Source of the DNA: Azolla caroliniana
Lineage: Eukaryota; Plantae; Polypodiophyta
Assembly: GCA_043228905.1 (NCBI GenBank)
Contig: JBHGNT010000002.1
Span: 19,468,001-19,532,000, forward strand
Length of the DNA: 64,000 bases
Direction of reading: 5' to 3'
Of this stretch, positions 21,851 to 33,796 are shown piece after piece. Under the pieces are notes generated by a model. That model saw only the letters and a program-made list of their open reading frames with translations. It was not told where the DNA came from and did no database searches. Numbering within the stretch: position 1 is the stretch's first letter; each line of letters begins with the position of its first letter. Position numbers and translations under genes: made by a program.

Positions 21851-24286
21851 GGAATGGGCTACCCCATTTTGGCTATTTGCCCCCCCCCCCCCACCAAAAA
21901 AAAACATAAATAAAAATAAATAAATAAACCTTTTTGGCCCCCTAAAAAAATAACTTTTTAGCCCCCTATTTTGGCTATTTGCCCCCCACCCCCCCAAAAA
22001 AAAAAAAAAAAAAAAACTTTTTGGCCTCCTAAAAAAAAACTTTTTAGCCCCCCTATTTTGGCTAAACTTACAACACTTCTTTCCCAATAACACTTACAAC
22101 AATACCTTGTTGGAACAAACATGCTTGTCAAGTGATTTGGTTGTTGTTGTGAAGTACCAAGTAGCTAAAATGAGTTATATTAATGGAAGTCAAATACAAC
22201 CTTCTTGGTATTACAAAAATAAAAATAAAAATTTGATAGTTCTCACCTCAACCAAAATGTTTTTGTGATATATATCAACCATTACACTTTACAACCTCAT
22301 AAAAAGGTTTATCAACTATTACATAAAAAGGAATCGTCGTCAATAACATTCTTAGTATTGTAGGGGCAAATAGCCAAAATGGGGGGGCAAATGCATATCG
22401 CAAGTGCGTGCATTGTGACCAGCTTGATCACATTTGGAACATTTGCGACCGGTAGAGTACTCAAATAGTGACTTCTCCCTTTGGTTGGCCTTTTTGTTCT
22501 TCGACCCTGCAGGGCGACCTCGCTTCCTAGTTACCACGACTGGATTGGAGAGAGACTGCAGTGGTGCTTGACTTGCTTCATCCAATCGTGTCATGAGAAC
22601 AACAACCTGGTCATCGTCAGTTTCATACAATCTTTGCTCAATTTTCCTCATCAAACGCTTTCTGGGAGACAAACATGGCTTAGCTATAGAGGCGTGTTGA
22701 ACCATTGAACACGCAATCAAGTGCCATTGACAGTGAATATCTTCAAGATGGAATCTTTCATTTCTTTGGATGCATCTCAAAATGTCACGACAACATGGGA
22801 CACCAAAACTTGATCGAAACAACCCCGTACATTCATCACCATAATTGTTGTCAATAACTTTCTTGTACTGCTCCAATAACTTGTCTAATGCGTGTTTGGA
22901 TATCTTCTTTACTAGCGGCCTCATGAACTTGAGTGCATGTCGATGTGCCTGTGTAGACTTGTCATACTCCATTTTGGTGTTCAATTCTGTCAGTTGTGTG
23001 TCCAGTAGTAAACGGATTTTCTTGAATACAGTGAGCAGATCGTTATTAACAATGCCTAAAACCCTCTTGACAACATAATGGTTGCCTTCAATGCGAGAGG
23101 TGCTGGTCATTCCAAAGTGAGGGAAGCGACCAGTCCAATAACGTACAATCTTGTCTTTGTGAATCAACCAAGTCTCATATACATACTGCACCAACGCATC
23201 GTGACTTGGTCGCCATTTCATTTGAAACGTGGCCCAGTTAGCCTCAAAATCTAGCTCGCTGGAAGAGTATAGAAGCTGGTTCCAGTCGTCCATATAGGCA
23301 TTTGTGTCGTCAATGCTTGCAAACTTCGTCGTTGCATAGGCCAGAATGTTTTTGTTGACATGCCAGATGCAAAGCAAATTCTTTGTAGAAGGGAACACGA
23401 TAGCAATTGCACTCATCAATGCAAGTTCTCGATCCAGTTACAATTACTGATGGCTTTGTCACAAATTCGAATGACTGCAATGCCCAAACATACATGGCTT
23501 CTATCTCGTTGCATATGAATGCAAATCCAGCATTGAACGTACTATTTGTAGCCGTAATTCCAACGATGTTGAGCAATGGCATGCCAAATCTATTCGTTTT
23601 GTAGGTGCAATCCATGACAAATACCACATTGAACCGTCTGGCAAGATCTGCTGACTTTTGATGACAAAAGAAAAGGCCACTGATTGAGCCGTTCGAGTTC
23701 ACCTTGGAATTGAAGATAAAGTCGCCAGTGGAGATCTCATCGTATAACGCTTGAATTGGCGAGCGCCCGTCAAGAAACTCGGCTCTTGCAACCACTTTTT
23801 CATTGTGGATTTCTTTCCTGGTGGTCCATTGATTTCTGGTTTTTTCTCTCAAGTAGGCCAAAGTTGAAGCCGCACCAGTTCCAGCATTTGCCATGTCGCG
23901 AACAATGGTTTTTTCTGTATCAGTTAGTCTACGAGCCGTTGATATACCACTGAGATTGTCAGAAATAGGATGATTGTGTACAATAGCTGCCTTTTTAATA
24001 GTCCATTGTCCCGTTTTCTTCGAGAAGTTTGCTCTAATGAAGAATGGGCAGTCCATTAGACGAGTCCCTATTTGTCTTTTGCGAGTATCGTCAGTCAAGC
24101 CTAGAGGGTTGCGATATTTTCCCCCATAGTAGCACTTGAAAGTGACTTTTCTATTGTCACTATGCTTATCCACCACAACAATTATATTTTGAGCACAAAA
24201 ATGGTCCTTGATAAAACTGATTTTTTTTAGGAGGCCAAAAAGGGTTTTTTTTTTTTTTGGGGGGGGGGGGGCAAATAGCCCATTCC
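21851..24286 (-). mobile_element. Mutator-like (MULE) DNA transposon
   Basis: Terminal inverted repeat GGAATGGGCTA...TAGCCCATTCC, extended by ggctatttgc(C)n(A)n..tttttggcctcctaaaaaaaa blocks. 8-bp TSD TTAATATA at 21843-21850 and 24287-24294. Confidence 0.9.
22352..24220 (-). pseudogene. MULE/FAR1-type DDE transposase with a 1-nt frameshift and no ATG start
   Basis: WRKY-like CPF..HNHP, MDCTYKTN, VT(D)RELAL, CIWH, SRIEGNH, AT-hook KRGRP and CCHC knuckle. An extra base near 23435 (act g gat cga gaa) splits the two ORFs. Confidence 0.88.
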
Positions 24287-24529
24287 TTAATATATTAATG
24301 ATTAATTCATTAGGGTTTCGGCTAAACTTAGGGTTTTAGTGAAACCTTGAGTTTGCAGCCGAGAATAGGATGTAGGATTAGTGTAGAGCATAAATTGACC
24401 CATGCGTGAAATTCGTAATATTCGACATCCGTAATATTCGTAATATTCGAGAATACAAAATGAGCCCAAGAATATTACAGAACCATTCGTTTATTTATTT
24501 ATTATTTTAAAAAATAATTTTATATACTA

Positions 24530-25030: not shown

Positions 25031-25460
25031 ACAATCAACACACCAAATCAAGAAAAAACTAAAGCAAAAACAAGACGCTACTCCAACATATTAGACACCA
25101 CCACATTAAGAAGTAGAAGCCGCAACGCGACCCCAACACAACAAGACGCAACAACAGCAAGTCGAAACCAACATACATATGGCATCTCCAATATAGAACA
25201 ACGGTGCAACAGAATGCACCGACATGAATCCTGAGTTTCTACAAGAACATAAAAAAAATCGTCAAACTTTTCAGATGGATCAACTAATACAAGCGGTATC
25301 TAACATCACAATACAATTGAATTTGACTAATCAAGCCATGCTATCTTTTTTCTCTTCGCAGATAGATAGGCACGCTAATTGCCTAGATCCACGAGTATGA
25401 CCTAAATCCTTCTCGGGTCTGCCGTTTGAGGACATCCTTTCTTGGCTCGATCATTTTGAA

Positions 25461-26147
25461 ATGGTGGCAAGCTATCATCAATGGCCCGAAGCACGGAAAG
25501 CACTAGAGATGCGAACCTTATTGGAGGGCATTGCGGCCACATGGTTCATACAACAAACAGAGGAGTCCAAGAACAATTGGTCGATACTTAAATCCCTCAT
25601 GATCGGCAATTTCACTCACCATGACTCAACTCAGACAACACTACAACAATTAGAGACCATCAAACAACAACAACATGAGCCAGTGACACAATTCGCAATC
25701 CGATTACAACAATTACTTACTCGCCCAAATCCAACAATGCTAGAATCGATGAAGTTATTCTTCTTGTGGCCATGGCTACGCCCAAAAATATATCGTCGAG
25801 TGCACGACCAAGGCCCCAAAACATTTCAAGAAGTCATCCTCATTGCGCAACGCATTGAAGTAGCAACACAAATAGAACTCCAAATGAGCTGGTCGTCCAA
25901 TGTCAATTCCGAGAAGCAGTACAACAGCAACGCCACGCCGATGGAAATCGATATCCAGAATGCTCAACTACAAGCAAGAAGGAACCTACCAACACGTGAT
26001 GCACAAGGAAGACCTAAGTGTTTTTTTTGCAACAACTATGGGCACGTGAAGAAACACTGTCGGAAATGGAGCAACCAAACACAGAAGCAAAATGTGCAAG
26101 TACAATTGGCTGTCAACAGTTACCGGGCCAACCTATCGGAAAACTGA
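25461..26147 (+). pseudogene. Gypsy E gag (5' part disrupted)
   Basis: Capsid-like region, PMEID, CFFCNNYGHVKKHC; ends SEN*. Confidence 0.85.
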
Positions 26148-28437
26148 GTCGCGGGGTGTTGAAGGGAGCACAACCCCCGCACATACAAGCATCCACATCC
26201 TCAAGTTCTCCCGTGTGCACGACCATGGCCACAATTCTCAATAGCCCGCAAGAAGTTCTCTTCAATTCCGGTAGTAGCATATCTTCCATCAACCAAGATC
26301 TGGTTGATCGCCTCAATCTTTCAACCTTCAAAGCTCCCCCGATCAAGGTGTTGTTCGGCGATCACCAACGCCTATATAAGTCCAACACCACAACCGCATG
26401 CACACTCAAGCTAGGATCCACCACAATCACGCACACCTTCTACGTACTTCCACATCAATTGTTCCCACTCACACTCGGATGTGATTGGTTCATCAAGAGC
26501 AGGGCCCAACTCGATTTCCATACGCGTCGCCTCACATTACCACAAGAAAGTTCAGTTCCCCTGTTCACAAGCAAATGCAACCAACAAATCAGTAATGCAC
26601 ATGTAGCATTAAGCAAGGAGGTTCACCTAAATGATGTCCACAAGATTTTAACTCAATACCCTGAGCTAATCAACTCATCTGACAAGCCCACTATAGTCTC
26701 TTTCCCAGTCCAACATGTCATCAACACAGGAAGCGCAACACCTGTCTGGACAACAGCAAGACGACGTTCTCCTTTAGATCATGCATGCATTGACCAAGCA
26801 GTGAATGAGATGCTTAAAAAGGGGATCATCTCACCCTCACATAGTGATTGGGTATCGGAGCCACACATGGTCAAAAAGGATGGTGGCACATACCGATTTT
26901 GTGTTCACTTTTGCAAGCTCAATCAAGTTACCATCCATGACCTTTACCCTCTGCCCCGAATAGATGACCTCTTGGGCCAGTTGGGATGCTCCAAGTACTT
27001 CACCTCTATCAATCTTGCGGTCGGATATTGGCAGATTCCAATGGACCCAAGAGATGCACATAAGACAACTTTCAGAACACGCAAAGGCCTATTCCAGTTC
27101 AACAAGATGCCATTTGGCTTGTCCGATGCAGGCAGCACATTTCAATGGATGGTAAATTCAATCTTCGCTGAATTGATCGCTGACGGTACAGTGCTCGTAT
27201 ACCTAGATGACATTCTAATTCATATTTCCACATGGCCACAACATATTCAGGTATTACAATCAGTTCTACAACGAATACAACAACACAATCTGAAATTACA
27301 GTGGAAAAAATGCAGATGGGATAGCACACAACTAAAGTTTTTGGGCTACATAATTTCTGTCGAAGGCCTACAGATGGACCCAAAGAAGACCGAGGCCGTG
27401 ACTAATTTTCCCCGACCAACCACAGTCAACTCCTTGCAGCGTTTCTTAGGCATGACAACTTTTTCACTCCGATTCATTCCGAATATGGCCACCATGACAG
27501 CACCCCTACGACACCTATTGCGAAAAGGCTCCAAGTTTGAGTGGACAACAAAATGTGAGAACAGCTTCATCCAATTAAAAACTACACTACACCAAGCAGG
27601 TCAGTTGGCTCACCCAGATTTCTCACGCCCCTTTCTTTTGCAGACAGACGCATCCAATCATGGATTGGGAGCCGTCCTACAACAAACGGATGCAACAGGA
27701 GTGGAGCACCCAGTTGCCTATATAAATCAATCCCTTACTCCTGGAGAAAAGAATTACTCCACAACAGAAAAGGAATGGTTAGCAATCGTATGGGCGTTCA
27801 CAAAGTTCCATCCCTATTTACACGGCACCCACGTCAACATCGAAACAGACCACCAACCCCTAGTCCATCTAATTAACAAGCCACACCCACCAGGTCGCCT
27901 GTTAAGATGGGCAATGGCTTTACAGGAGTATCGGTACACATTAACTTATAAAAAAGGAGTCCAAAATGTGATTGTCGATGGGTTGTCAAGAGTAGAAACA
28001 CAATGTGCTCAATTCAACCCTACAATAGTCCAATTACCCACAACGATCGCCCAGATAGCAGCCCTACAACAAGCCGACGAACAAATACGACAAATCACCC
28101 ATGACATCCAATCGACAACAAGCAAAAAGGTACACAACCATTTCCAATTGCAAAACAATGTCTTATACTTTATACAAACAGGGAAAGAGCCACGAATCTA
28201 CATACCACAAAGCTTGAGGAATTTATATAGGCAATTTTTTCACAATCACTCGATGTCTGGCCACCTTGGATTCCACAAGGTGTTGGACAAGATCTGTCTC
28301 TGATATTATTGGCCGCAAATGCATACAACGATTGCAACCTACATCAAACAATGTTAGTCATGTCAACAAATTAAGCCGCCCCATTCCAATGGCGGCCTAC
28401 TCTAGCCTATTACTATTTCTGAACCCTTTGAATTAAT
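26138..28437 (+). pseudogene. Gypsy E pol (PR-RT-RNaseH-partial INT) in the -1 frame
   Basis: LFNSGS (protease D>N), YPLPRIDD, GYWQ, MPFGL, YLDD, LQTDAS, ETDHQPL, GHLG; stops at 28301 and beyond. Confidence 0.9.
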
Positions 28438-28564
28438 CGAATCTTTAGTACTTTTGGGCTGTATGGCCTAAGCAAGGAGTGCGAGTGTATAACCTTCGGC
28501 AGTTGGATAGTTAGGGTAAATAGTATGGTACCTAAAGAATAGTATAAAAGAGAGTGGTAGGGGA

Positions 28565-28570
<6 letters not shown>

Positions 28571-28610
<40 letters not shown>
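28571..28610 (+). repeat. (GA)20 microsatellite in the PLE 3' region
   Basis: Read directly. Confidence 0.9.
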
Positions 28611-28615
<5 letters not shown>

Positions 28616-28637
28616 AATTTCAATTTATGTAAGAAAA

Positions 28638-28690
28638 GGTCTTTTGGCAAACATGTTTCGCTCTATATGAGCTCATCAATGCTAAAGGCC
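28638..28690 (-). ncRNA. Minimal type I hammerhead ribozyme (C3>U variant)
   Basis: Minus strand reads ggcctttagca-TTGATGA-GCTC-atata-GAGC-GAAA-CATGTT-tgccaaaagacc: imperfect stem I, core UUGAUGA, perfect 4-bp stem II, GAAA, palindromic AACATGTT stem III. Confidence 0.8.
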
Positions 28691-28917
28691 CGTATACAAA
28701 AATGTGAGAGGCTTATATAGGGAAAGATGCAAGAAGAGTGAAGGGGAGTGGTGGGGATGGATGAGAGGGGATTTGAATGTGTATAAAGGAGGATGTGGGA
28801 GTTAGGGAGGTAGTGAATGTAGAGAGGGATAGCTTAATGAGTTTGATGGTAAGGGATGATTTGGGGATCTATTATATTTAGTTCAAGTAGAATGATAGCA
28901 ATAGTAGTTGTGATGTT

Positions 28918-30669
28918 TTAATGGGGATTTGGGGATCTAATATATTTAGTTTTGACTAGATAAGAATAGAGTGATTTGGACTTGGTCCAACATATGAAAG
29001 GCTTAGGAATGTTTTTTAGTTGGGAATCTAGGCTAAGGTCGGTGTGTAAGTCTTTTAAGAACGAGTGGATACCTAATTTAGGGGAGTTTTTAGAGTACCT
29101 AAGCTTGAATATGGTAGGTGTAAGGGAAGTTTTGTTTTTATGCTTATGGATGAGAGTATTCCTAAGGGAGAAAGGATGTTTATTAAAGGCTTTAAGGATG
29201 AAATTTGGTGGGTAACCTCGGCTAATGAGTCTAAGGAAGAAACGTTTTTTCATTTCTAGGTACCCTATAGGTGTGCTTTCTCTAACTAGGTAGCGTTTTA
29301 ATTCGTTCGAAATAAAATTTTGTTTGACGTGTATAGGATACTCTGAGGACTAGGGAAGATATTGATAGGAATTTAATGGTTTTTGGAAACAATTGAAAGA
29401 GAACTTAGAGTTCTCTAGATTGATCCAAATATCCAAGAAAGGGAGCCTAGTGGGGGATGTATGGATCATAAGTTTAATAGAGTTATTGGTCATAAGGCTA
29501 TAGAAAATGAGGTAGTCTAAGAGTTGGGGTTTCGTACCTGTCCAAACCCCGAATGCATCATCTATGTACCTAGTAAAATAGAAGAGATGGGGTGTGGTTT
29601 GTGAGTTTTCTAGGTGTGATAAGAAAAGGCATGCATAGACAACTGAGAAGTTGCTACCCATGGCTATTCCTTTGATTTGTTGGTATACTTGATTATCGAA
29701 GGTTAGATAGTGATACTCTAGGGTTAGAGCGCTAAGGGTATAGATAAGATTGGTCTTGGCTAAGGAAAATTGGGGAGAGATGATATGGCGAAGTGCTTCG
29801 AGTCCTAACTTAGGGGGGATGTTAGGATAAAGGGATTCTACATCAAAAGAGAAGATGAAACTGTTAGGAGGGGGGGTTAGTTGTTCTAGTTTTTGGATGA
29901 GTGAGTGTGAGTCTTTTAGGTATTGTTTTTGGAGTACTAGGATGGGTAATAGTTGAAAATGTAGCCATTTCGAGGTTTGCTCGAATATCGAGTTATTATA
30001 AGAACAGATGGGTCTAAAGCTAATGGGTGTTTTATGGAGTTTAGGGAGAAAGTAAATGTTAGATACTTGATATCCCTTTACGGGTTTATGGAGTATGTAA
30101 TTAGCTTCGATAAAGGAAAGTGTCCTTAGATTTTTTTGCACTATACTATTTAGGCGATATAAGAGTTCTTCTAATGGAAAATGGGTTACTTTTCTATAGG
30201 TGGTGGTATCCGAGAGGTGGTTTATAGCTTTTTCATAATAGGTATCTTTGTCTAGAACACATACTCCCATGTTCTTATCAGCCGGAAGAACGATAATTTG
30301 GTTGTTTTTCCTAAGGCTCTTAAGGGTTGTGCGAAGGTGAAATGGTGTCCTAATGGGTTTGGGTTTAGGTTGTTGGAGTTTAGACAAAAGGAGGGTTTCA
30401 TGTTTTTTAATAATATTTTCAAGAGGGGGATATTGAGATGGTGGATTCCAGTTAGAATTTGGTAGTTTAAATGGATTAAGGGGGGGTGAGTCCATGTCTC
30501 TAAAGAAATGTTTTAAACGTAAAGATCTACTTAAACTAGCAAATTCTTTAATGATAGTATTAGTGGAAGGTAGAGAGGATGGTGGAATGTATTTGAGTCC
30601 TAAGCTTAGCAATTGTGTTTCATTATTTGTGAGGGGGTGTTTAGATAAATTGTGAATTTTACTTTCTAT
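28918..30669 (-). pseudogene. Penelope-like reverse transcriptase, one internal TAG at 29350, no C-terminal GIY-YIG
   Basis: HNLSKHPLT..LLSLGLKY, PADKNMG, LPKLHK..RPI, FDVESLYPNIP, GIAMGS, RYIDD, PFLD, QKP..QYLP*SS, RGYP; the two ORF pieces share a frame. Confidence 0.9.
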
Positions 30670-31197
30670 TCAAAGGGTAGCACTAAGTGGTTTCCAAAAC
30701 TTTTTTCGTGGTCTATTACTATTGGATTTTTTATGGCGTGGGCAGAAGGGGAAAGATGTATTTGTATTACCTAGCCACATAAAAGTGTCTGGGGTGGAGG
30801 TGGTCCTATTAAGAAGATAAAATAGGCATCTACAAGGATGCACGACGTGTCTAAAGTGTTTGTTAACACGCTTAGCACGCCGTGCTAGTCGTTTTTTGGT
30901 CGGCTAGAAGGTGGGTTCCTATGGTGTGTGGTAGGGGGAGGATTAGTGGAGTGTGGTGTATTTCTATAATGTTTATGATTAGGATAGGAGGGAGGGGTGG
31001 TGTGGTGGGTGAAGGGGGTTTTTATATTAGAGAGGGGATAATAAGAAGGAGGTTTATTAAGATACGAGGAAGGGGTAGAGTATGAATTAGAGGGGGGGGG
31101 TTTCAACAAATGGGGTAAAAAAAAAGTGAGATAAAGGAGGGGGAGGGGTAGTATGTGAATTAGGGGCAAAATAGGGGGGGGGGGGGGGGGACATGAG

Positions 31198-32490
31198 TTA
31201 GATTATCGGGAAGTAATGCAGGGGCATGTATGAGATATGGAAATAATTGAGAGGGAGAGGGGAGGGGATGAGGCATTTGTTCATAGAGGCTGCCTCCATA
31301 TGAAGACAAAGGGGGATGTGAGGAGGGAACCGAGAAATGGGAGTAATTAGGGTTCTAAAAACGTGAGAGGTGAGGCTGTTGTGAGCATGGATGAGGGGTT
31401 GGAAGGAGGGGCGGCGCAAATGTGTGTTGGCTGCCTTGCGCAGTCCCAAACAACGCACCATGTAGGGAGGGGGAAGTGTGCACGAGATGGCTGTCCATAC
31501 TCGTTTACAATAGGGGGGGGGGAACGATTGATGAAAGAGGCCACGATCAACCACGGCATGTTGCTGGTTATTGTGCAGTGGATCACGTTTCTGTGATGTC
31601 CAATTATTGTAGGGCGTACCATGTGTACAGCGGAGAAGGGGCGGTGGCGGCGGCGAGAAGTTTTGTTGGCGGCTTTGATTCGTAACAGAGTGTTGAAATT
31701 GTTGTCTTGAAATGTTTGGCAGGTGCGGTTGACGATAGTATGGTGGATGGAGCTCGGGGACGGTGTTAGGAGCCGGAGGACTTATATGAGCGGGGAGATG
31801 ACCGAGGCCTATCGTTGCGAAAGCTTGTGGTGAGCGAGAATGGTGCGGTTCATTATTGGCAAAGTTTGGGTTATGAAAAAGAACTTGAGGCCCTCCATGG
31901 TTGGGATAAGGTTTAAATGCTTGTTTAACCTCATTAGTTGCGGTGTTGCAGGTGAAAAGGAGGTTAGATGCTCGATGACAAGGACGTTGCGCTTGTTTGG
32001 AGTTATTATTGGAGCGGTGGTTTGGGTTAGGGTGAGAGTTAGGAAAAGGGTTAGTGGTATTTTTGGAATTAGAGTTAGTGTTTGGGTTAGACTTAGGTTC
32101 TGGATTAGGGTTTAGGGTAAAGTTTAGATTCTTTTTGGGGTTGGGTGTGGGTGTGTGATTAGAATTTTTATTTAGGTTAATAGTATGGGGGACAGAATTT
32201 TTAGTGTTATTTATCTCGACTTCTACGGGAGCAATGTACGAGGGACTGTCATAAAACATTTCATTATCATTTTCTTCTTCCCCTTCATACATTGTAATGT
32301 CTATATCTCTAATATTAGGGTTTTCATATCTATTTTGTGCTCTTGTTTTATCTCTAAGTTCCGTGGCCGTTCTCTTAAGTGTATCATCAATGTTGTGATT
32401 TAGTGCGAAATCGTCACACATTTTTAGGATTTCAGAGCCGAAATCTTGTAGTAACGTATTAATTGTTTCTTGAAAATTAGCTGACTCAAC
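31198..32490 (-). CDS. PLE ORF1 (N/P/Q-rich, 5'-truncated, unknown function)
   Basis: Over 400 open codons upstream of the RT on the same strand; frame is open to the junction near 32490. Confidence 0.5.
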   Translation of the reverse strand, partial: VESANFQETINTLLQDFGSEILKMCDDFALNHNIDDTLKRTATELRDKTRAQNRYENPNIRDIDITMYEGEEENDNEMFYDSPSYIAPVEVEINNTKNSVPHTINLNKNSNHTPTPNPKKNLNFTLNPNPEPKSNPNTNSNSKNTTNPFPNSHPNPNHRSNNNSKQAQRPCHRASNLLFTCNTATNEVKQAFKPYPNHGGPQVLFHNPNFANNEPHHSRSPQAFATIGLGHLPAHISPPAPNTVPELHPPYYRQPHLPNISRQQFQHSVTNQSRQQNFSPPPPPLLRCTHGTPYNNWTSQKRDPLHNNQQHAVVDRGLFHQSFPPPYCKRVWTAISCTLPPPYMVRCLGLRKAANTHLRRPSFQPLIHAHNSLTSHVFRTLITPISRFPPHIPLCLHMEAASMNKCLIPSPLPLNYFHISYMPLHYFPII

Positions 32491-32998
32491 ATATGATGAT
32501 ACATCCTCAAAATGGGAGACGGTTCACGCGCAAAGAGAAGGGGAAGAAGAAGATGTCAGATTATGAAACCGGTAATGATGAGTCAGATCAGAGCGGATCC
32601 GACTCCGGAAAGGAAAATGACGGCTCTTCGGCACCAAAGACCGAACCGGCCAAGAAGGGCCTCAAACCGGGTAACGGTGGGTTACGCCGGTCAACCCGCC
32701 AACAGGAACCTGTTAAGTGGTATGGGTACAATGAGTACATGGCGCATCACTATGCGTACATGACCTAGGTGGTGGAAGTGCGTGAGTCAGAGAGTTACGC
32801 AGAAGCGGCAAGGGATGCAAATTGGCGTGCCGCTATGGAGGAAGAGATGCGGGCACTTGATGCCAACGATACATGGGACCTGGTTGACCCTCCCCATCAC
32901 AGTAAACCGATCGGATGCAAGTGGTTGTACAAGGTAAAGTACAACGCCAACGATTCAATTAACCGGTACAAGGCCCGGTTAGTGGCAAAGGGATACGC

Positions 32999-33796
32999 TG
33001 TCGAGATATTACGCAAGTGCGTGTGGAAACGAGGCGGGACCGCGGGGGTCTCGAACCAAAGAGCAAGCGAGGGAGGAGAAAGAGAGAGAACCGGCTACGC
33101 AGGACCGGGGATACACAGGGACACGGCCCTTCAGCACGGAGAACGCGAACAGACACCGACACAGACAGATGCGAATGACTAAATATGTATATTAACAAAA
33201 AAAAAAATGGCTAACACGACTACAACCCTCGATGGGGCACAGGTTGGTTACAACCGAACAGGCCGGCGAACAGATGCCGATGCTTGTTCGCTTCGACGCA
33301 CAAAGGGGTAGCAGGTCGGAGGTGCTACCGGAAGCACTCGGGCGTTCCTCGAAACAGCGCGAGCCTCCTCGGAACCCTGCACAGAAAGCTATGGAGCTCA
33401 AGAAGGAAGGAAACAGAGAGAGAAGCGTCCAGAAACGGTCCGACAGCACTTCGTCCTCTCTGCGCGAGATGCCTGCAACAGCTCTTTCCTGCTCCTTATA
33501 TAGGCCGACGAGCAGGCCGTCATGTCAGCTTTATTCCCTGTCCCTTTCGGACAGGGATCCGCTCCGTTCTTCACGCATCCGCGTAGTTACGCCGCCGACT
33601 CGTACAGTTCCTTAGCTCGCGCGCGCGACCGAAAAGACTGTTCGCGCGGTCTTTGTCTCCACTTGTCTTAGGGCCCGTTCCTGCCGATTATCCTCCTAAT
33701 TCGCTTCTATGTACAACTTGGAGCGTGCGCGCGTGAAGAACCGGTTCCCACGCCTTGGTGCGCCGATTCCGCTTATGGACGGTTTTCTTCACGACA
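32999..33796 (-). repeat. 3' LTR of Gypsy A (798 bp)
   Basis: TGTCG...CGACA ends; 33030-33796 matches 47398-48161 with 4 substitutions and one 3-bp indel seen. Confidence 0.92.

Follow-up and report, generated by a model that had tools for sequence, protein, structure and literature searches.

A decayed type I hammerhead in an endonuclease-less Penelope-like element of Azolla caroliniana, and sister copies with 5′ ends clustered at its predicted cut

The role of hammerheads in Penelope-like elements (PLEs) is described as unclear (PMC8557442), and the motif in the window (by which we mean the whole 64,000-nt stretch analysed, C2:19468001-19532000 in a searched genome of 523 Mb) raises the question in two forms: whether this copy could still cleave, and whether cleavage in its relatives leaves a mark on the copies they make. 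The initial annotation placed a hammerhead on the sense strand of a PLE, about 230 nt after the stop codon of the reverse transcriptase (RT) and with cleavage after GUU at 28650. All three points were borne out, the last as a motif position.

The hammerhead motif and its class

Predicted from sequence, the motif is a decayed copy of a type I hammerhead at 28637..28691 on the minus strand, with stem I beginning 227 nt 3′ of the RT stop (28920-28918). Stem I pairs 28691-28680 with 28649-28637 and carries a C·A mismatch at 28688/28640. The core segment UUGAUGA (28679-28673), with U at position 3 (28679), is followed by stem II, GCUC/GAGC (28672-28669/28663-28660) around an AUAUA loop, then by the GAAA box (28659-28656) and CAUG. 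Helix III, A15.1-C15.2-AU-G16.2-U16.1, occupies 28656-28651, and the predicted cleavage site is GUU/U, with U16.1 at 28651, U17 at 28650 and the cut at 28650/28649, all on the minus strand. Stem I had been described as degenerate, which is correct for the damaged window copy but not for the family, where it is well formed. An Infernal search (cmscan) returned a match to Hammerhead_HH9 (Rfam RF02275) at the site (28629-28693), but a weak one: the window copy, the only one scored, reached 18.6 bits (E=1.2) against a gathering score of 52 bits. Taken alone, the window hammerhead folded no better than shuffled sequences (z −1.20), and that of the sister copy L002 folded better than its shuffles (z −3.23). 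Genome-wide, the core pattern gave 360 matches, of which the first 100 were listed, versus 55 for its reversed control.

The family comprised 45 distinct copies from 65 loci, from which 14 structural representatives were picked by hand. Standard pairing was found in 126/126 cells when nine pairs were scored across these representatives. The stem covariation sought in other copies was present in part. One stem II pair alternates between U-A and C-G (7:7), other pairs being invariant or changed on one side, and distal stem I pairs in 14/14 representatives despite differing sequences, including a swap from GGUC/GACC to GACC/GGUC; the proximal stem I and helix III pairs, however, are invariant and therefore contribute no covariation. 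The helix III palindrome reads AACUAGUU in 12 representatives and AACAUGUU in two, and the stem I bulge and loop 2 differ between families. The catalytic core was kept across all families. All 11 core bases were canonical in 25/45 family copies and the majority base was canonical at every position, the window copy itself departing from the canonical core at C3.

By the definitions in PMC4209133, the motif is a canonical type I hammerhead and not a minimal one. Minimal hammerheads, as described there, lack helix III; their helix II is long, at 7-8 bp, and is preceded by an extra base between A9 and 10.1. The present motif has a helix II of 4-5 bp, with G10.1-C11.1 straight after A9 and no extra base between A9 and 10.1 in 14/14 representatives, and a 2-bp palindromic helix III with a 2-nt loop. 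Helix I is open, helix II has 4 bp and helix III has 1-2 bp with a palindromic loop, as in type I, and at the family level the core is C3-U4-G5-A6-N7-G8-A9, G12-A13-A14, A15.1-U16.1, H17. The palindromic stem III had been taken as the signature of minimal hammerheads proposed to cleave as dimers; the palindrome does favour a dimer, but the label "minimal" is contradicted by the features of helix II and helix III. Energy predictions put the folding cost of the active monomer at 7.3-10.6 kcal/mol and that of the active dimer at −1.0 to +2.2 kcal/mol per core, and the lowest-energy dimer, which over-pairs the 10-nt palindrome, at 3-13 kcal/mol below the active dimer. As the active monomer is costly and the over-paired dimer lowest in energy, weak, regulated cleavage would be expected.

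The host element and the decay of the window copy

The hammerhead lies in the remnant of a PLE at 32514-28437 on the minus strand, inserted in a Gypsy integrase remnant and without its 5′ part in the window. ORF2 (28918..30903, minus) encodes a PLE RT with DKN and YIDD motifs and a thumb, interrupted by in-frame stops at 30672-30670 and 29352-29350 (minus), and ORF1 (30885..32514, minus) is a frameshifted remnant whose first ~220 codons are missing. In L079, a natural full-length intact sister, a 768-codon ORF1 frame overlaps an RT frame of 661 aa that stops at the thumb; a GIY-YIG domain was found neither by Pfam in the window pieces nor in the 661-aa ORF2 of L079. L075 is likewise intact and young, and many RT frames measure 660-668 aa. 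At the ORF1/ORF2 overlap, a slippery heptamer, A AAA AAC (30891..30897, minus), is followed by a long hairpin; both are kept in the window family and in six sister loci (L135, L137, L139, L140, L147 and L148), and from them a −1 frameshift is predicted. The elements show the PLE features of an RT with a DKx motif and thumb, a pseudo-LTR from partial tandems, and inverted 5′ pieces. A protein search with the RT returned 119 proteins, and a tree was built by a quick method from 90 rows (those of at least 480 aa among the first 92 proteins), with no named Coprina included. The query fell in a 22-row clade (SH-aLRT 100), apart from the endonuclease-bearing (EN+) group and together with five named Cryptomeria and Ginkgo proteins; PF01541 (GIY-YIG) is listed for 0/22 clade members. 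Proteins P0017 and P0021-P0024 are endonuclease-less RT relatives that are annotated as uncharacterised in Cryptomeria japonica and Ginkgo. Gymnosperm relatives, CCCTAAA telomeres and CHG-biased decay together indicate a land-plant host.

Several copies continue past 28437 straight into ORF1, so the hammerhead region is a pseudo-LTR, ordered as TATA box, hammerhead, (UC)n leader and next unit. The TATA box (TATATAA, 28713..28719, minus), a predicted pseudo-LTR promoter, lies 40 nt before position 3. Among the core matches listed, 21/30 loci have a TATA box 36-42 nt before C3; of the nine loci without one, five are chance matches, three are copies with a truncation or deletion, and one is a variant. 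The original assignment of the motif to the PLE 3′ region is correct in that it lies 3′ of the RT, but incomplete: the pseudo-LTR is both promoter and 5′ end of the next unit, so that the ribozyme would also stand at the 5′ end of the RNA. The (UC)20 tract said to follow the cut (28571..28610, minus) is indeed downstream, but starts 39 nt past it and is internal to the element, as part of a 5′ leader with a tract length that varies between copies. This internal position rules out (UC)n as a target site or tail. Other remnants in the window are a MULE transposase (22352-24335, minus), a Gypsy gag-pol interrupted by the PLE (25401-28436, plus) and a Copia-like RT fragment at 32515-33182 that abuts the 5′ break of the PLE.

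The U in place of C3 had been ascribed either to CHG deamination in this copy or to a family variant with a U3-G8 wobble. Comparison across copies shows C3 to be the family state, with C3 in 37/45 and U3 in 8/45, and the same 45 copies also record G5-to-A five times and G12-to-A eight times. The CHG positions of the motif (C3, G5) were changed in 13/90 cells versus 95/627 CHG cells in ORF2, where CHH changes numbered 46/1603 (ORF2 changes scored against L079). On a tree of 37 copies U3 requires six changes and a single U3 clade was recovered in 0/200 bootstraps; shuffles did equally well in 54/500. A U3 subfamily was ruled out by this scatter. Because U3 is scattered on the tree and occurs at the neutral CHG rate, it is, on these sequence comparisons, post-insertion decay with about six origins, which leaves standing the deamination option and not the family variant. 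That U3 should instead be a functional variant, its wobble with G8 keeping the window copy active, we regard as very improbable. U3 does occur in 8/45 copies, and PMC4209133 describes a U3-A8 core variant in Schistosoma PLEs, but A8 was found in none of the 45 family copies, U3 occurs alongside the G5-to-A and G12-to-A decay, and the window copy has in addition a mismatch in stem I and two stops in ORF2, and lacks its 5′ end. The anole hammerhead was killed by C3G and G8C (PMC11167929). The window hammerhead is probably inactive through U3-G8, and the copy as a whole is probably a mutated fossil with a dead hammerhead.

5′ and 3′ ends of sister copies

Copies were listed by anchors downstream of the cut and their upstream sequence was then inspected. 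The anchors gave 54 tail matches in the window family and 71, 50, 69 and 28 matches in sister families, for which the patterns overlook roughly one truncated copy in four, at random. Before counting we removed five internal deletions, a single chance match, window-family ends beyond +13 and duplicates of one event (seven of the eight copies that form a C5 array, one member of a C6 pair, and C399). Junctions were read by eye from printed matches, with a blur of 1-3 nt from microhomology. With related families pooled, 33 independent 5′ ends fell within +13..−45 of the predicted cut, and 13 of these lay at −1..+2, where 1.7 were expected (p 4e-9, or 2e-7 after correction for scanning, the test interval having been chosen after the first junctions were seen). 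Six of these cut-site ends were at −1, four at +1 and three at +2, and within the 3′ arm of stem I they accounted for 13/23 ends (p 2.5e-4), the remaining ten falling at +4 to +13, three of them at +9. Four ends were in the core (including one that is probably an LTR insertion and was counted), and six were 4-14 nt upstream of C3; these six lie 23-34 nt from the TATA box, as TATA-to-start spacing predicts for the start site. Across the cut the number of ends per nt drops from 1.64 to 0.14, and 5′ ends accumulate at the predicted scissile bond in six families. A transcription start at the cut was rejected, since the TATA box, 66-72 nt upstream, is farther away than plant TATA-to-start spacing.

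Eleven of the 13 cut-site ends are clear insertion ends. Past the 3′ end, a duplication of the flank is present in L079 (112 bp), L118 (113), L104 (435) and L103 (500 or more); in L027, L112, L113 and L115 the end is joined to a preceding tail or partial repeat; three are head-to-head joins with another family, in L101 (C1:9209341) and L119 (C16:4601350), where each partner ends at its own cut site and the two have TGC in common; and two, in L105 and L109, have no assigned context. A non-templated A was considered as the cause of the six −1 ends: the extra base is shared with the target in L103 and L118, and is not explained by upstream sequence in L027 and L115. The full-length L079 starts at +2 and ends past an intact second hammerhead. 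Contigs of four sequencing runs (of guessed type) compared with L079 contained related sequence and no ends. Given the clustering of 5′ ends at the predicted cut, cleaved RNA probably does serve as a template in vivo.

At L003, L061, L079, L103, L104 and L118 the flank duplications are unusually long (24 to 500+ bp), and their joints show 1-6 nt of microhomology; BLAST detected no flank duplication at 31/31 ordinary copies, and duplications of 8 bp or more were absent at 5/6 copies in a separate check. Pieces of different families are joined head to head or tail to head in L101, L119, L056/L057, L010 and L113, which suggests template jumps between RNAs of different families.

At the other end of the element, family 3′ ends cluster (28437..28450, minus), the window insertion ending at 28437 inside the Gypsy integrase remnant. 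A conserved tail signal, CGCACUCCUUG with a small covarying hairpin, lies at 28457..28483 (minus), and in 23/28 scored copies the 3′ end falls 5-25 nt past the hairpin that follows CGCACUCCUUG. Signal and hairpin are kept across families, including sister loci L033-L059, with two-sided changes at three pairs among 12 sequences, and together they likely mark the start of reverse transcription.

Template cleavage, rival readings and known systems

We consider it probable that the window holds, within the pseudo-LTR of a two-ORF, endonuclease-less PLE, a canonical type I hammerhead that is decayed and likely inactive, and that in intact sisters the ribozyme likely cuts part of the RNA in vivo, the RT running out at the cut. 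We infer that transcription from a TATA promoter would begin at the 5′ arm of stem I and that cleavage after GUU would be inefficient and leaky, probably needing a dimer or help from protein. The RT would bind near the CGCACUCCUUG hairpin, use short microhomology to prime on the end of a broken chromosome, and copy leftwards. Most templates, uncut or re-ligated at the ribozyme, would yield copies with an intact hammerhead, like the window copy, and cut templates would yield copies beginning at the cut site; on uncut templates the RT would stop at the start site. Since most copies have an intact hammerhead, cleavage would not be obligatory.

The same ends could arise if the fold were only a roadblock or binding structure, with the RT stalling on uncut RNA in stem I or the three-way junction. 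The ten of 23 3′-arm ends at +4..+13, with three at +9, are what stalling in stem I would give, and insertion in vitro was unaffected in hammerhead mutants of PAc (PMC11167929). Yet the peak sits at the scissile bond, at the far end of the arm (13/23 ends in 3/14 positions), and not at the stem base, which a polymerase meets first; the drop in end density across the cut and the retention of the catalytic core in all families also speak against a passive structure, and we judge stalling unlikely. More credible, though still less likely than not, is the model of PMC4209133 in which cut-to-cut monomers re-ligated into circles are the main template, intact-hammerhead copies and tandems arising by rolling and cut-site copies from re-opened circles. 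A sister family with seamless, identical 5581-bp tandem units bearing an intact hammerhead at each joint, and the many copies that run through the hammerhead into ORF1 of the next unit, would fit such circles, but uncut read-through RNA accounts equally for both. L079 needs a template cut at its first hammerhead and intact at its second, for which linear, partly cut RNA is simplest, and linear uncut RNA is also indicated by the six ends close to where the start site is expected. As a ligated junction is identical to the genome, DNA cannot tell circles apart, and circular templates are compatible with partial cleavage in vivo as set out above.

A textbook telomere-attaching Coprina, whose hammerhead would expose telomeric repeats for priming at chromosome tips, is a quite unlikely description of these elements. 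They share with Coprina the absence of GIY-YIG and an ORF1 linked by a predicted frameshift signal; about 140 nt of CCCTAAA-like repeats follow the hammerhead of a sister family, and 8/53 RT copies (all families) lie within 500 kb of scaffold ends versus 2.4 expected (p 0.003). Against this, overall RT-match positions are consistent with a uniform distribution (KS p 0.20, 53 matches), and 38/45 window-family copies are >1 Mb from a scaffold end, with 2/45 within 200 kb and 7/45 within 1 Mb (one scaffold length approximated), several near-end copies sitting in subtelomeric satellite. The tail of the window family has no CCCTAAA-like repeats, no telomeric run follows the 3′ end in any of the 29 of its copies checked (one flank holds a single heptamer), and attachment to telomeres by reverse-complement repeats beside the hammerhead was not found in this family. 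The one telomere-capped copy examined has its 3′ end directed at the telomere. At six scaffold ends (both of C2, the left of C3, C7 and C14, and the right of C8), three begin with telomeric repeats (CCCTAAA), and an element adjoins them at C7 only; the sample being small, sister families, one of which has CCCTAAA-like repeats, may still attach truly to telomeres. Most of these elements are interstitial, which sets them apart from the textbook Coprina. Seamless tandem arrays of intact 5581-bp units of the sister family with CCCTAAA-like repeats were seen at L139 (C22), L140-L141 (C400) and C29.

Canonical type I hammerheads have been described in the pseudo-LTRs of endonuclease-deficient Selaginella moellendorffii PLEs (PMC4209133, by Cervera and de la Pena, 2014). 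The present elements resemble these, as judged by description and not sequences, in being plant endonuclease-less PLEs whose pseudo-LTR holds a type I hammerhead with a 4-bp helix II, G10.1-C11.1 and a small palindromic helix III; they differ in the GUU triplet and in being mostly interstitial, the Selaginella PLEs being described as telomere-associated, and in their cut-site 5′ ends, none being reported for Selaginella PLEs in the account of PMC4209133. PLE-X Chlamys (Chara, Selaginella) is likewise endonuclease-less with a canonical hammerhead, and its Chara copies lie genome-wide; its defining marks are a CxC motif and another N-terminus (PMC8557442), and CxC was not seen by eye in the present ORF2. 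With Coprina EN- PLEs, as described in PMC8557442, PMC13159263 and PMC6431247, the elements share an RT without GIY-YIG, the DKN motif, a frameshift-joined ORF1, a hammerhead near the 3′ end and, in some sister families, telomere-like repeats, whereas dispersed insertions with microhomology, occasional long flank duplications and a window-family hammerhead free of telomeric repeats set them apart. PAc Poseidon of Anolis also starts reverse transcription internally, at a small stem-loop downstream of its hammerhead, and has clustered 3′ ends, but it encodes a GIY-YIG endonuclease in a single ORF, and PMC11167929, the one biochemical study, gives no indication of cleavage in vivo: insertion persists in catalytic mutants, and none of the RNA reads ends at the site. 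In R2 elements with HDV-like ribozymes, too, the cut site sets the 5′ junction and chance microhomology joins it (PMC3774820). R2 has a different ribozyme, a site-specific endonuclease and an rDNA co-transcript, and here, unlike in R2, the footprint is found in a minority of copies only.

Hammerheads in plant endonuclease-less PLEs were already known from Selaginella, and what is added here is the interstitial spread and the cut-site footprint. In a literature search by title and start of abstract, with supplements and some key papers outside its scope, neither a printed cut-site footprint nor fern or conifer EN- PLEs were found. We are evenly divided on whether the present data would constitute the first genome-wide record of a Penelope hammerhead cutting its retrotransposition template in vivo, in a land-plant clade (extending to Ginkgo and Cryptomeria) of endonuclease-less elements that would have left the telomeres and would patch internal breaks, with cut-site cDNAs of different families joined head to head and with the start of copying set by another conserved RNA signal. 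Ends of copied RNAs recorded by the genome itself at the predicted scissile bond are a rare genomic indication that the ribozyme likely trims the RNA template, and the intact young copies L079 and L075 make the role of cleavage directly testable and illustrate how a nuclease-less element spreads through chromosome arms.

Further hammerhead-like repeats were seen elsewhere in the genome. Tandem arrays of short hammerhead-derived units at C5:3884922-3892419, C20:13309043-13316340 and C14:144027-144482 comprise eight units of about 1058 bp without the core and, with the core, five units of about 1800 bp and three of about 190 bp, resembling non-autonomous retrozyme-like repeats. Among the matches listed, a second repeated class of the core pattern, CTGATGAG..GGCCGAAAC.GGATGT (e.g., C4:4949694, C5:9289352, C6:1352635 and C8:1296461), may represent another kind of hammerhead-like repeat, perhaps carried by LTR elements.
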